A stretch of 64,000 bases of DNA from Escherichia coli (GTDB lineage Bacteria; Pseudomonadota; Gammaproteobacteria; Enterobacterales; Enterobacteriaceae), in the NCBI RefSeq assembly GCF_002854065.1, contig NZ_CP024147.1; one strand, given 5' to 3'. This document shows positions 16,462 to 55,053 of the stretch, piece after piece. Numbering within the stretch: position 1 is the first letter of the stretch; each line of letters begins with the position of its first letter. Below the pieces are notes generated by a model. The model was not told the origin of the DNA and did not search any database. It was given only the letters and a program-made list of their open reading frames with translations. A program made the translations under genes and the position numbers.

Positions 16462-17007
<546 letters not shown>

Positions 17008-17016
17008 GAGAATTGC

Positions 17017-17808
17017 ATGAGCAGTAACTTCAGACATCAACTATTGAGTCTGTCGTTACTGGTTGGTATAGCGGCCCCCTGGGCCGCTTTTGCTCAGGCA
17101 CCAATCAGTAGTGTCGGCTCAGGCTCGGTCGAAGACCGCGTCACTCAACTTGAGCGTATTTCTAATGCTCACAGCCAGCTTTTAACCCAACTCCAGCAAC
17201 AACTCTCTGATAATCAATCCGATATTGATTCCCTGCGTGGTCAGATTCAGGAAAATCAGTATCAACTGAATCAGGTCGTGGAGCGGCAAAAGCAGATCCT
17301 GTTGCAGATCGACAGCCTCAGCAGCGGTGGTGCAGCGGCGCAATCAACCAGCGGTGATCAAAGCGGTGCGGCGGCATCAACGACGCCGACAGCTGATGCT
17401 GGTACTGCGAATGCTGGCGCGCCGGTGAAAAGCGGTGATGCAAACACGGATTACAATGCAGCTATTGCGCTGGTGCAGGATAAATCCCGCCAGGATGACG
17501 CAATGGTGGCATTTCAGAATTTCATCAAAAATTACCCTGATTCAACTTACCTGCCAAACGCCAATTATTGGCTGGGTCAGTTAAACTACAACAAGGGTAA
17601 AAAAGATGATGCGGCGTACTATTTTGCTTCGGTAGTGAAAAACTATCCGAAGTCACCAAAGGCTGCAGATGCGATGTTTAAAGTCGGTGTCATCATGCAG
17701 GACAAAGGTGACACCGCAAAAGCGAAAGCCGTATACCAGCAGGTTATCAGTAAATACCCTGGTACTGATGGCGCTAAACAGGCACAAAAACGTCTGAACG
17801 CGATGTAA
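17017..17808 (+). CDS. cpoB: cell division coordinator CpoB (YbgF)
   Basis: 263 aa, signal peptide, coiled-coil, TPR-like C-terminus. Confidence 0.95.
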   Translation: MSSNFRHQLLSLSLLVGIAAPWAAFAQAPISSVGSGSVEDRVTQLERISNAHSQLLTQLQQQLSDNQSDIDSLRGQIQENQYQLNQVVERQKQILLQIDSLSSGGAAAQSTSGDQSGAAASTTPTADAGTANAGAPVKSGDANTDYNAAIALVQDKSRQDDAMVAFQNFIKNYPDSTYLPNANYWLGQLNYNKGKKDDAAYYFASVVKNYPKSPKAADAMFKVGVIMQDKGDTAKAKAVYQQVISKYPGTDGAKQAQKRLNAM

Positions 17809-17972: not shown

Positions 17973-18048
17973 GGGTCGTTAGCTCAGTTGGTAGAGCAGT
18001 TGACTTTTAATCAATTGGTCGCAGGTTCGAATCCTGCACGACCCACCA
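17973..18048 (+). tRNA. lysT: tRNA-Lys (anticodon UUU)
   Basis: 76-nt gggtcgttagctcagttggtagagcagttgacttttaatcaattggtcgcaggttcgaatcctgcacgacccacca with encoded CCA. Confidence 0.97.
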
Positions 18049-18083
18049 CTAACCTAGTTAGTTGTAGTATCCAGCGTAGTATC

Positions 18084-18159
18084 GGGTGATTAGCTCAGCT
18101 GGGAGAGCACCTCCCTTACAAGGAGGGGGTCGGCGGTTCGATCCCGTCATCACCCACCA
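18084..18159 (+). tRNA. valT: tRNA-Val (anticodon UAC)
   Basis: 76-nt gggtgattagctcagctgggagagcacctcccttacaaggagggggtcggcggttcgatcccgtcatcacccacca. Confidence 0.97.
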
Positions 18160-18161
18160 CC

Positions 18162-18237
18162 GGGTCGTTAGCTCAGTTGGTAGAGCAGTTGACTTTTAAT
18201 CAATTGGTCGCAGGTTCGAATCCTGCACGACCCACCA
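18162..18237 (+). tRNA. lysW: tRNA-Lys (UUU)
   Basis: Identical copy of the lysT sequence. Confidence 0.97.
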
Positions 18238-18288
18238 CTAATTACGGTGGGTTCGGTGGAAGTAGTTTGTAGTATCCAGCGCAGTATC

Positions 18289-18364
18289 GGGTGATTAGCT
18301 CAGCTGGGAGAGCACCTCCCTTACAAGGAGGGGGTCGGCGGTTCGAACCCGTCATCACCCACCA
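18289..18364 (+). tRNA. valZ: tRNA-Val (UAC), T-loop variant
   Basis: Same as valT except gttcgaaccc instead of gttcgatccc in the T-loop. Confidence 0.95.
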
Positions 18365-18367
18365 CTC

Positions 18368-18443
18368 GGGTCGTTAGCTCAGTTGGTAGAGCAGTTGACT
18401 TTTAATCAATTGGTCGCAGGTTCGAATCCTGCACGACCCACCA
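18368..18443 (+). tRNA. lysY: tRNA-Lys (UUU)
   Basis: Identical copy. Confidence 0.97.
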
Positions 18444-18495
18444 GTTTTAACATCAAACTCAGATGTTAAGCGTGAAGGATAACGTTGCGCCAGCA

Positions 18496-18541
18496 ACGGC
18501 CCGTAGGGCGAGCGAAGCGAGTCATCCTGCACGACCCACCA
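18496..18541 (+). repeat. tRNA-Lys 3'-end remnant repeat, copy 1
   Basis: acggcccgtagggcgagcgaagcgagtc followed by atcctgcacgacccacca, the exact last 18 nt of tRNA-Lys; no 5' half. Confidence 0.7.
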
Positions 18542-18589
18542 ATCTTAAAGATTGGCCCCGAGTAAAAATCTTTCAGGTAACACCCGTAT

Positions 18590-18665
18590 GGGTCGTTAGC
18601 TCAGTTGGTAGAGCAGTTGACTTTTAATCAATTGGTCGCAGGTTCGAATCCTGCACGACCCACCA
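18590..18665 (+). tRNA. lysZ: tRNA-Lys (UUU)
   Basis: Identical copy. Confidence 0.97.
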
Positions 18666-18698
18666 TCCTGAATGATTAAAGCAGCATAATCCCGCAAG

Positions 18699-18774
18699 GG
18701 GTCGTTAGCTCAGTTGGTAGAGCAGTTGACTTTTAATCAATTGGTCGCAGGTTCGAATCCTGCACGACCCACCA
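18699..18774 (+). tRNA. lysQ: tRNA-Lys (UUU)
   Basis: Identical copy; last gene of the array. Confidence 0.97.
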
Positions 18775-18778
18775 ATGT

Positions 18779-18805
18779 AAAAAAGCGCCCTAAAGGCGCT
18801 TTTTT
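18779..18805 (+). terminator. rho-independent terminator of the tRNA operon
   Basis: aaaagcgcc-ctaa-aggcgc hairpin followed by tttttt. Confidence 0.75.
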
Positions 18806-18884
18806 GCTATCTGCGATACTCAAAGATTCGAACCTGCAGCAGGTTTGAGTTGAGCGTAGCGAAACAACGGAGCCGCTCGCGGCG

Positions 18885-18930
18885 ACGGCCCGAAGGGCGA
18901 GCGAAGCGAGTCATCCTGCACGACCCACCA
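18885..18930 (+). repeat. tRNA-Lys 3'-end remnant repeat, copy 2
   Basis: acggcccgaagggcgagcgaagcgagtc plus atcctgcacgacccacca; differs from copy 1 by one nt. Confidence 0.7.
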
Positions 18931-18934
18931 ATGT

Positions 18935-18961
18935 AAAAAAGCGCCCTAAAGGCGCTTTTTT
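18935..18961 (+). terminator. second copy of the tRNA-operon terminator hairpin
   Basis: Same aaaaaagcgccctaaaggcgcttttttgctat sequence as at 18779..18805. Confidence 0.6.
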
Positions 18962-19117
18962 GCTATTCAGGCATCTCTCAATTTCAATTCTTGACCCTGA
19001 TGACATACTTCGCGCTTGCTGCGTAAACAACTTTACGTCGGAGGAATAAGACGCAAAGTGTGGCATTCGGCATCTCATACGTAATTCGAGTGACTTTTCC
19101 CCACCATTCGACTATCT

Positions 19118-19207: not shown

Positions 19208-20251
19208 ATGAGCGTGATGTTTGATCCAGACACGGCGATTTATCCTTTCCCCCCGAAGCCGACGCCGTTAAGCATTGATGAAAAAGCGTATTACCGCGAG
19301 AAGATAAAACGTCTGCTAAAAGAACGTAATGCGGTGATGGTTGCCCACTACTATACCGATCCCGAAATTCAACAACTGGCAGAAGAAACCGGTGGTTGTA
19401 TTTCTGATTCTCTGGAAATGGCGCGCTTCGGTGCAAAGCATCCCGCTTCTACGTTGTTAGTCGCTGGGGTGAGATTTATGGGAGAAACCGCCAAAATTCT
19501 CAGTCCGGAAAAAACAATTCTGATGCCGACACTTCAGGCTGAGTGTTCACTGGATCTCGGCTGCCCTGTTGAAGAATTTAACGCATTTTGCGATGCCCAT
19601 CCCGATCGTACTGTCGTCGTCTACGCCAACACTTCTGCTGCGGTAAAAGCGCGCGCAGATTGGGTGGTAACTTCAAGCGTTGCCGTCGAACTTATTGATC
19701 ATCTTGATAGTTTGGGTGAAAAAATCATCTGGGCACCCGACAAACATCTGGGGCGTTACGTGCAAAAACAGACGGGCGCAGACATTTTATGCTGGCAGGG
19801 TGCTTGCATTGTGCATGATGAATTTAAGACTCAGGCGTTAACCCGCTTGCAAGAAGAATACCCGGATGCTGCCATACTGGTGCATCCAGAATCACCACAA
19901 GCTATTGTAGATATGGCTGATGCGGTCGGTTCCACCAGTCAACTGATCGCTGCTGCAAAAACATTGCCACATCAGCGGCTTATCGTGGCAACCGATCGGG
20001 GCATTTTCTACAAAATGCAGCAGGCGGTGCCAGATAAAGAGTTACTGGAAGCACCAACCGCGGGTGAGGGCGCAACCTGCCGCAGCTGCGCGCATTGTCC
20101 GTGGATGGCCATGAATGGCCTTCAGGCTATCGCTGAGGCATTAGAACAGGAAGGAAGTAATCACGAGGTTCATGTTGATGAGAGGCTGCGAGAGAGGGCG
20201 CTGGTGCCGCTCAATCGTATGCTGGATTTTGCGGCTACACTACGTGGATAA
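19208..20251 (+). CDS. nadA: quinolinate synthase
   Basis: 347 aa, [55 protein letters not shown]... Confidence 0.97.
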
Positions 20252-53919: not shown

Positions 53920-54060
53920 GCTAGTATCGGCTTAACCACTAAACACTCTAGCCTCTGCACCTGGGTCAACTGATACGGTGCTTTGGCCGTGACAATGCTC
54001 GTAAAGATTGCCACCAGGGCGAAGGAAGAAATGACTTCGCCTCCCGTATCTGGAAAGGTG
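53920..54060 (+). promoter_or_regulatory. moaA 5' leader, presumed molybdenum-cofactor (Moco) riboswitch
   Basis: About 140-nt structured leader before moaA; the E. coli moaA leader is known to carry the Moco RNA motif; boundaries approximate. Confidence 0.5.
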
Positions 54061-54063
54061 TAC

Positions 54064-55053
54064 ATGGCTTCACAACTGACTGATGCATTTGCGCGTAAGT
54101 TTTACTACTTGCGCCTGTCGATTACCGATGTGTGTAACTTTCGTTGCACCTACTGCCTGCCGGATGGCTACAAACCGAGCGGCGTCACCAATAAAGGCTT
54201 TCTGACCGTCGATGAAATTCGCCGGGTTACGCGCGCCTTCGCCAGTCTGGGCACCGAAAAAGTCCGTCTGACAGGTGGTGAGCCGTCTTTACGCCGCGAC
54301 TTTACCGATATCATCGCCGCTGTGCGAGAAAATGACGCTATCCGCCAGATTGCGGTCACCACCAATGGTTACCGTCTGGAACGCGATGTGGCGAACTGGC
54401 GCGATGCTGGACTTACTGGCATCAACGTCAGCGTTGATAGTCTGGACGCCCGCCAGTTTCACGCTATTACCGGGCAGGATAAATTCAACCAGGTGATGGC
54501 AGGGATTGATGCTGCATTTGAGGCTGGTTTTGAGAAGGTCAAAGTCAATACCGTGCTGATGCGTGATGTGAATCATCACCAGCTCGACACCTTTCTGAAC
54601 TGGATCCAGCATCGCCCTATCCAGCTGCGTTTCATCGAACTGATGGAAACGGGCGAGGGCAGCGAGCTCTTCCGTAAGCATCACATCTCTGGTCAGGTTC
54701 TGCGTGACGAGCTACTGCGTCGCGGCTGGATCCACCAATTACGTCAACGCAGCGACGGTCCCGCGCAAGTCTTTTGTCATCCGGATTACGCCGGAGAGAT
54801 TGGCCTTATCATGCCGTATGAAAAAGACTTCTGCGCCACTTGCAACCGTCTGCGCGTTTCCTCCATTGGTAAACTCCATCTCTGCCTGTTTGGTGAAGGC
54901 GGCGTTAACCTGCGCGATCTGCTGGAAGACGATACCCAGCAACAGGCGCTGGAAGCGCGTATTTCAGCGGCGCTGCGGGAGAAGAAACAGACCCATTTCC
55001 TGCATCAAAACAACACCGGTATTACGCAAAACTTATCGTACATTGGCGGCTAA
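54064..55053 (+). CDS. moaA: GTP 3',8-cyclase (radical SAM)
   Basis: 329 aa from [31 protein letters not shown]...; track ORF trimmed by 27 codons. Confidence 0.97.

Follow-up and report, generated by a model that had tools for sequence, protein, structure and literature searches.

Two tRNA-linked repeats of the RtT family in an Escherichia coli lysT operon: fold, distribution and copy-number change

Egan and Landy were the first to describe the tRNA-linked repeats (TLRs) of Escherichia coli, in 1978, and the census by Rudd in 1999 counted 22 of them at ten loci in K-12, with one to five per locus (both as summarised in PMC8144298). They are defined by their last 18-19 nucleotides, which equal the 3' end of the upstream tRNA (PMC8144298). 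A TLR of the tyrT operon is reported in the literature to yield a stable processed RNA, rtT. The TLRs of tRNA operons have no established function: the sole phenotype reported, in the stringent response, was once ascribed to the tyrT copy (rtT RNA) and was retracted in 1994. The 19 TLRs of tRNA operons have CsrA-binding scores below 0.01 (PMC8144298).

One of the K-12 operons with such repeats, lysT, has been studied at the level of its transcript. The primary transcript is about 1,100 nt long and ends at a terminator right after lysQ (Agrawal et al. 2014, PMC4176162); the long spacers hybridise to probes, and the transcript of that size is detected by probes against the lysY-lysZ spacer. An identical terminator follows both lysQ and lysV. 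RNase P removes the lysT terminator and proceeds from 3' to 5', RNase E can cut the long spacers, and exonucleases trim long 3' trailers. The homology of the spacers with TLRs goes unmentioned in that paper (PMC4176162).

Two repeats in the lysT operon

The operon considered here lies in a window of 64,000 nucleotides, the whole stretch of DNA that was analysed, from another strain of E. coli. It is flanked directly by cpoB (17017-17808) and nadA (19208-20251). Both ARAGORN and Rfam find seven intact tRNA genes at 17973-18774, as had been counted in the initial annotation; their order is Lys-Val-Lys-Val-Lys-Lys-Lys, with five tRNA-Lys and two tRNA-Val genes and Rfam tRNA scores of 65.9-79.2 bits. 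That annotation had also described two repeat copies ending in the last 18 nt of tRNA-Lys including CCA, and these are confirmed. The 18-mer ATCCTGCACGACCCACCA forms the end of all five tRNA-Lys genes and is present at two further sites in the window, 18524-18541 and 18913-18930; chance alone would give about 2e-6 occurrences, against the seven found. Around these two sites, 18493-18549 and 18882-18938 form a common 57-nt unit with 93% identity, and the core ACGRCCCGWAGGGYGAG is present in the 64 kb only at 18496 and 18885, against an expectation of 0.07. The copies had been described as a unit of about 46 bp. The repeats and their coordinates are real, but the homologous units are longer: the internal copy measures approximately 75-98 nt and the terminal one 120 nt (Table 1).

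What are these two 'tRNA 3'-end remnants'? Both are TLRs, members of the RtT RNA family of Rfam, which was already known; its elements measure about 75-125 nt and occupy spacers and trailers within tRNA operons. In a scan against all Rfam families, the internal copy matches RF00391 (RtT RNA) at 18375-18541 with 54.4 bits and the terminal copy at 18805-18930 with 47.1 bits, relative to a curated gathering score of 45 bits; both scores were reproduced in three separate scans. The score of the internal copy comes partly from outside the TLR, because the Rfam alignment takes in the T-arm of lysY and a 44-nt insertion. Sub-threshold Rfam matches (among them Plastid-ycf2 and YrlA, the latter with 44 bits for a gathering score of 69) reflect resemblance to tRNA and were discarded. 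A tRNA gene or pseudogene was likewise rejected, as ARAGORN and the Rfam model RF00005 detect only the seven intact genes and the TLRs keep only the strands that resemble the acceptor and T-stem.

The position of the two copies is that of TLRs elsewhere. One follows lysY and the other follows lysQ and the terminator T1, all on the + strand, and this layout is repeated in 24 further mapped loci. In the near-identical strain 100416, PGAP labels the terminal copy 'RtT sRNA, processed from tyrT transcript', and it places the RtT sRNA label on the terminal-type element in thousands of genomes; the short internal TLR is never annotated by PGAP/RefSeq. The orthologous positions of K-12 also match RF00391, with five matches in the lysT operon (one per tRNA-Lys), one after lysV and four in tyrT-tyrV, and five in lysT fits the published range for a single locus. 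Because of these K-12 matches and the TLR literature, the locus amounts to the rediscovery of a known family. Such features should be labelled TLR/RtT elements in annotation, and neither tRNA pseudogenes nor attachment sites.

Table 1. Features of the lysT operon and its TLRs in the window (positions within the 64,000 nucleotides)
Feature	Position	Strand	Evidence or remark
Empty TLR slot, lysT-valT spacer (after lysT)	18049-18083	+	K-12 has a 100-bp TLR unit there; also filled in W13-16, VTB96959v, 20A24 and YPE3
Empty TLR slot, lysW-valZ spacer (after lysW)	18238-18288	+	K-12 and STEC1589 have a 98-bp TLR unit there
lysY, tRNA-Lys(UUU)	18368-18443	+	ARAGORN; Rfam tRNA, 79.2 bits
Last 18 nt of lysY	18426-18443	+	Reappears as the last 18 nt of the internal TLR
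Internal short-form TLR (RtT-like), fills lysY-lysZ spacer	18444-18541	+	RF00391, alignments A1/A2, fold
Spacer hairpin TTTAACATC...GATGTTAAG, 5' of TLR core	18446-18470	+	Fold; not conserved in other slots (alignment A2)
Closing helix, 5' strand CGTGAAGGAT	18471-18480	+	Pairs with 18524-18533 (fold; type-specific covariation)
Hairpin 1, CGTTGC-GCCA-GCAACG	18483-18498	+	Centroid fold, pair counts
Hairpin 2, GCCC-GTA-GGGC	18499-18509	+	Fold, pair counts
Hairpin 3, GCGAAGC	18512-18518	+	Most compensatory variation among homologues (pair counts)
tRNA-Lys 3'-end copy, 18 nt, T-loop A59 to CCA	18524-18541	+	
Empty TLR slot, lysZ-lysQ spacer (after lysZ)	18666-18698	+	K-12, 20A24 and YPE3 have a 99-bp TLR unit there
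lysQ, tRNA-Lys, last gene of the operon	18699-18774	+	ARAGORN, Rfam
54-nt direct repeat, copy 1 (tRNA 3' 18 nt + ATGT + terminator + GCTAT)	18757-18810	+	
156-bp tandem unit	18757-18912	+	Begins with copy 1 of the 54-nt direct repeat
Terminator T1, Rho-independent terminator of the operon	18779-18805	+	Fold -19.1 kcal/mol, z = -6.2; PMC4176162
Terminal long-form TLR, RefSeq 'RtT sRNA'	18811-18930	+	RF00391, PGAP in strain 100416, alignment A3
5' hairpin of long TLR	18825-18851	+	Antisense T-arm copy 18825-18837, loop A18838, sense T-arm-like arm 18839-18851
Hairpin 1 of long TLR, GCCGC..GCGGC	18872-18883	+	Compensated version of CGTTGC..GCAACG
Hairpin 2 of long TLR, GCCC-GAA-GGGC	18888-18898	+	
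Hairpin 3 of long TLR, GCGAAGC	18901-18907	+	
54-nt direct repeat, copy 2	18913-18966	+	18913-18930 is the tRNA-Lys 3'-end copy closing the terminal TLR
Terminator T2	18935-18961	+	Identical to T1; fold -19.1 kcal/mol, z about -6

The internal copy is predicted to fold with a minimum free energy (MFE) of -32.7 kcal/mol and z = -3.5 (RNAfold), and its closing helix is formed in the MFE fold. Within the copied tRNA end, 18524-18533 supply the 3' strand of this helix and 18534-18541 a single-stranded ACCCACCA tail. The 5' strand looks as if the T-stem 5' strand of tRNA-Lys had been fused directly to the end of its acceptor 5' strand. Because this strand mimics acceptor and T-stem, the internal TLR can be likened to an acceptor/T-arm helix in which the 'T-loop' has been expanded to three hairpins. 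The internal copy has both the closing helix and the hairpins of RF00391 (fold and pair counts); the terminal copy keeps the hairpins, and four of the seven pairs of its closing helix are lost (alignment A3). The decayed helix may fit a weaker constraint on a copy that lies behind T1.

The long form differs from the short form by an extra 5' T-arm hairpin and a further small hairpin. The fragment GATTCGAACCTGC at 18825-18837, when reverse-complemented, matches the tRNA-Lys T-arm exactly, and the hairpin that it forms has a fold z-score of -3.5. A T-arm fragment on the opposite strand had been noticed here in the initial annotation; it is accounted for by the long form itself, which carries an antisense and a sense T-arm in one hairpin. 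The homologous 5' hairpin co-varies with the tRNA type, and its pair 21-30 in alignment A3 is GC in 10 units, UA in 10 and CG in one.

The terminal TLR sits between two identical terminators of the operon, as part of the 156-bp tandem unit. The terminator hairpin had been described as duplicated, and the duplication is exact: both hairpins lie inside a 54-nt perfect direct repeat with a spacing of 156. A rule-based promoter/terminator scan called neither a promoter nor, at T1 or T2, a terminator on the + strand. The terminators were missed by the rule because their A-run/T-run pairs lengthen the stem and no free T tail is left; by folding and by the literature (PMC4176162), T1 and T2 are the operon terminator.

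Homologues and covariation of the core

Homologues were collected in a genome scan with one genome per species, using a pattern composed of hairpin 2 and a generic TCC-N10-11-ACCA end. The scan yielded at least 158 units in at least 120 loci, a sample into which the conservation of hairpin 2 and of the TCC...ACCA end is built, since the pattern required both. Three matches without tRNA context (L041 from an archaeon, L072 from Chloroflexi and L118 from Pectobacterium) were treated as chance. The hosts among the matches listed comprise many genera of Enterobacterales, Alteromonas, a Cellvibrionaceae MAG, Thiodiazotropha and Sedimenticola. Copies linked to Pro, Tyr and Lys tRNAs were confirmed by Rfam: RF00391 scores 98 bits for a Pro-linked unit of Kluyvera, 82 for Gilliamella, 64 for a Tyr-linked unit of Cellvibrionaceae, 48.7 for Thiodiazotropha and 47.9 for Alteromonas.

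The 3' 18 nt of the units match a tRNA gene in their own locus, which among the matches listed is mostly Lys or Tyr and otherwise Arg (ATCCTCCCGGATGCACCA) or Pro. In nearly every listed tRNA-linked unit, the tRNA-identical part starts at one T-loop position, immediately before ATCC. The listed units always lie 3' of the cognate tRNA on the same strand, either alone or with two or three of them in tandem.

Integrase attachment sites are classically recognised by direct repeats of a tRNA 3' end whose start lies in the T-loop, and the initial annotation had raised this idea. The repeats could then be scars of site-specific integration, in which a phage or island that has since decayed duplicated a tRNA 3' end in the manner of attL/attR. 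The repeats here are 18-54 nt long, which counts in favour of this reading, and the start in the T-loop is common to both. However, merely 80-102 nt separate the repeats, and this interval is the conserved, structured TLR core. The window locus contains no integrase, foreign gene or other foreign DNA, as cpoB and nadA flank it directly, and tRNAs for Tyr, Arg and Pro show the identical architecture, as do tandem arrays. A blastn search of both units against 50,697 phage records returned no genuine phage match; the matches were short and fell in tiny records without annotation or in chromosomal contigs of Salmonella that belong to the collection. With the elements essentially absent from phage records, the attachment-site idea lacks support, and an origin of the repeats in integration is exceedingly improbable.

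In the closing helix, each tRNA type has its own 5' strand: CGTGAAGGAT for Lys, GGGGAAGGAT for Tyr, CAGGGAGGAT for Arg and AGAGGAT for Pro. In an anchored helix search, the 5' strand of each unit pairs best with the 3' strand of its own tRNA type. Among the 31 short forms of alignment A1, the proposed structure has 94.3% of cells paired, compared with 50% or less when slid; six pairs change on both sides, and none of 500 shuffles reaches the covariation score. For the 26 long forms of alignment A3, RNAalifold independently arrives at the closing helix together with the 5' hairpin and hairpins 1-3, and 11 of the 26 pairs are compensated. These counts come from phylogenetically related sequences in a sample of at least 120 scanned loci. 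Hairpin 3 varies freely in sequence and length with its pairing kept, and the loops include GNRA and UUCG tetraloops; pair 49-56 in A1 is GC in 14 units, CG in 10, AU in five, and UA and UG in one each.

Could the repeats instead encode small basic peptides? The 'protamine-like protein' Tpr is annotated inside the tyrT repeat (tpr, b1229, within the K-12 tyrT TLR), and the present locus has ORFs of 26 aa (18485-18565) and 28 aa (18850-18936), which read ...RPEGRAKRVILHDPP. Both ORFs start with TTG, however, and 1-2-nt indels in hairpin 3 of the homologues break the frame (A1 columns 50-52; A3). Moreover, the variation is compensatory at the level of RNA and not synonymous. A Tpr-like coding function is very unlikely.

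The comparison across Gammaproteobacteria indicates that TLRs are conserved, folded and compensated, and are not inert relics. A speculative reading, less likely than not, is that they are selected mimics of the tRNA acceptor/T-arm: stems from at least four tRNA families carry one and the same three-hairpin core, and the 5' strand follows the cognate tRNA. The covariation of the closing helix could also arise without selection, from quasi-palindrome (inverted-repeat) correction during replication. If the mimicry were real, TLR RNA would engage enzymes that act on tRNA 3' ends, such as the nucleases of tRNA processing, the CCA-repair enzyme and perhaps synthetases or toxins; alternatively, the TLR would buffer the 3' maturation of the upstream tRNA. 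Either might account for this repeat family, known since 1978.

Gain and loss of units among E. coli strains

The initial annotation had proposed a comparison with other E. coli genomes, and copy-number variation is indeed found at the TLR slots. The interval from cpoB to nadA was mapped directly in nine E. coli strains. K-12 has five TLRs in the lysT operon and the present strain has two. Each indel between K-12 and the window is exactly one unit of spacer plus TLR, bounded by the 18-nt repeat and with unchanged flanks. The slot after lysY is filled in all nine strains as judged by spacer length, although the 146-nt lysY spacer of STEC1589, 20A24 and YPE3, which has the filled length, does not match the core pattern. 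The terminal 156-bp unit of TLR and terminator is present once in this strain and in K-12, twice in VTB96959v, and is missing from RIVM_C039205, STEC1589, 20A24 and YPE3.

Similar variation is seen across the species. The unique part of the long type was found in 3242 of 5426 complete E. coli genomes, at 1-5 places each, and the short type seen here in 4125 of them, at 1-4 places each; at the sensitivity of megablast, 24-40% of the genomes are without each TLR type. The exact arrangement was matched in only 416 of the 5426 genomes (at least 80% of a 1.8-kb query). An assembly artefact, which had been named as a possible refutation, is excluded because an independent assembly, that of strain 100416, is 99.9% identical across the locus; the elements also occur in thousands of complete genomes.

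How does the copy number change? It shifts by the gain or loss of exactly one unit between direct repeats, which are either the 18-nt tRNA end or the 54-nt repeat that includes the terminator. This process also gave rise to the second terminator, which is simply part of the repeat unit. The locus shows clearly how the copy number in a highly expressed tRNA operon can be polymorphic unit by unit, and the mapped natural strains, with one to five TLRs, could be used as a deletion series for effects on tRNA-Lys maturation. The initial annotation had regarded the copies as relics of unequal recombination. The nine strains bear out the part of this that concerns recombination, as copy number does change by recombination between direct repeats. 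The repeats are not random relics: they belong to a conserved TLR/RtT family with compensatory base changes, whose members follow tRNAs for Lys, Tyr, Arg and Pro in many gammaproteobacterial genera.

Individual TLR copies are evidently dispensable, because three of the five slots are empty here and each type is lacking from a sizeable share of genomes. Does it follow that they are functionless repeat DNA, a by-product of unequal crossing-over or slippage between tRNA 3' ends that is kept and spread only by recombination in the array? The unit-precise presence or absence at every slot, with 0-2 copies of the terminal unit, the many E. coli genomes without each type, the decay of the closing helix in the terminal copy and the lack of a known role for TLRs (PMC8144298) all speak for it. 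So does the finding that TLR 3' ends track species-specific tRNA variants even beyond the TLR helix, a sign of concerted evolution through recombination. By contrast, conservation of the core extends from Enterobacterales to Alteromonas, Cellvibrionaceae and Thiodiazotropha, three or four helices are maintained by compensatory changes, and the loops are classical loops of stable RNAs. In addition, one core is found on four tRNA families with a matching 5' strand, for which simple unequal exchange within one array is insufficient. On balance, functionless DNA is an unlikely account of the family. For individual copies it is possible that they are pure junk, given their dispensability, but this is hard to square with conservation and compensation across orders.

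Expression and comparison with known systems

In rRNA operons, TLR RNAs located between T1 and T2 arise when transcription reads through T1 (Stenum et al. 2021, PMC8144298). Their 3' end lies 3 nt past the copied 18-mer and has been ascribed to RNase E recognising the copied end (PMC8144298). The TLR RNAs of the lysT operon may be processed at their CCA ends by the tRNA maturation machinery. The internal TLR would be transcribed together with lysY-lysZ. Its tRNA-like helix and CCA, followed by AU-rich sequence (ACCA/AUCUUAAAG), might then be handled as a tRNA 3' end: RNase E would cut in the AU-rich stretch right after the CCA, and exonuclease trimming would leave a defined CCA 3' end. The terminal TLR RNA would presumably be made only upon read-through of T1.

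The locus as a whole is very probably best explained by conserved, folded TLR/RtT elements that change in copy number unit by unit and whose CCA ends would mature as those of tRNAs do. The finding adds nothing new on TLRs, with the covariation of the stem across tRNA families as the one possible exception.

The TLRs of K-12, like the two copies here, lie directly 3' of a tRNA in a tRNA operon, with the last 18 nt identical to the tRNA end. There is no categorical difference between them and the copies described here; the present strain carries two of the five copies of the lysT operon. With RtT RNA (RF00391), both window copies have the core hairpins in common, as well as the tRNA-like CCA end. 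They differ in that their 3' end and closing helix are of the Lys and not the Tyr type; the tyrT copies score 133-137 bits compared with 47-54 bits in the window, and the internal window copy is a short form without the 5' T-arm hairpin.

The arrangement of the terminal copy is shared with rrA, rrB and rrF of rrnA, rrnB and rrnD, in which the 3' end of a gene is likewise followed by T1, a TLR with an 18-nt end copy, and T2 (PMC8144298). Those RNAs copy the 3' end of 5S rRNA and bind Hfq and CsrA (PMC8144298), whereas the window copies copy tRNA-Lys. Unlike the layout of rrA, rrB and rrF, T1 and T2 in the present operon are identical, because the terminator is part of the repeat unit.

Possible co-evolution of the repeats with their tRNA genes

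Do tRNA-linked repeats (TLRs; Rfam RF00391, RtT RNA), whose last 18 nt copy an upstream tRNA 3' end, evolve together with the tRNA genes they follow? The T-arm core AGGTTCGAATCCT is common to all four TLR-bearing tRNA families among the matches listed (loci L011-L130). At the same loci, species-specific tRNA variants are mirrored in the TLR 3' ends, at positions outside the helix of the TLR itself; for example, Citrobacter and Budvicia carry ...GCACGCCCCACCA. Because the core is shared and the 3' ends track the tRNA variants, the sequences suggest concerted evolution of TLRs and tRNA genes, and transfer of TLRs between tRNA families through microhomology at AGGTTCGAATCCT is possible. Within the window, the T-loop of valZ in this strain differs at one position (GGTTCGAACCCG versus GGTTCGATCCCG in valT and in K-12 valZ), and the variant scores as a normal tRNA (66.7 versus 65.9 bits).

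Features of the window
Feature	Position	Remarks
valT	18084-18159	compared with valZ
valZ	18289-18364	compared with valT
Hairpin 3, internal TLR	18512-18518	GCGAAGC
Hairpin 3, terminal TLR	18901-18907	GCGAAGC
Small basic ORF, 26 aa	18485-18565	overlaps internal TLR; reads ...RPEGRAKRVILHDPP
Small basic ORF, 28 aa	18850-18936	overlaps terminal TLR; reads ...RPEGRAKRVILHDPP
CpoB/ybgF RNA thermometer	16908-17046	pal-cpoB junction; Rfam, 142 bits
Molybdenum-cofactor riboswitch	53932-54076	Rfam, 103 bits

Structure and annotation

The third internal hairpin is GCGAAGC in both window TLRs, a sequence known to form a mini-hairpin of unusual stability in single-stranded DNA. At three loci (L121, L129, and L051, the serV-arg tRNA operon of E. 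coli SCPM-O-B-8794), short-form TLRs lie downstream of tRNA-Arg(ACG) genes as well, and none of these TLRs has an RF00391 match at the Rfam gathering threshold. The closing helix of the Arg-linked TLRs, formed with the copied tRNA 3' end, would cover the whole 14-nt T-stem and acceptor 3' strand with 12 of 14 pairs, and ACCA would be the sole unpaired part of the TLR 3' end.

In E. coli RefSeq genomes, the long terminal TLRs carry the PGAP label 'RtT sRNA'; for the short internal TLRs the annotation is 'none' for every match listed. The K-12 reference record has no annotated TLR in the lysT and valU operons. Besides the TLRs, the window holds two further Rfam matches at gathering level (see table).

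Likeness to the tyrT repeats

Both small ORFs over the window TLRs are similar to Tpr, a 'protamine-like' ORF that the K-12 annotation places within a tyrT repeat. Frame-breaking indels in homologous sequences argue against a coding role for the window ORFs. Two or three TLR units lie in tandem 3' of the last tRNA of the operon at five loci, in Klebsiella (L026), Pantoea (L032), Superficieibacter (L017), Enterobacter cloacae (L022), and E. coli VTB96959v (L007); in the E. cloacae and E. coli arrays, every unit has a terminator copy of its own. The arrays at these five loci are comparable to the classic tyrT repeats (3.14 x 178-bp).
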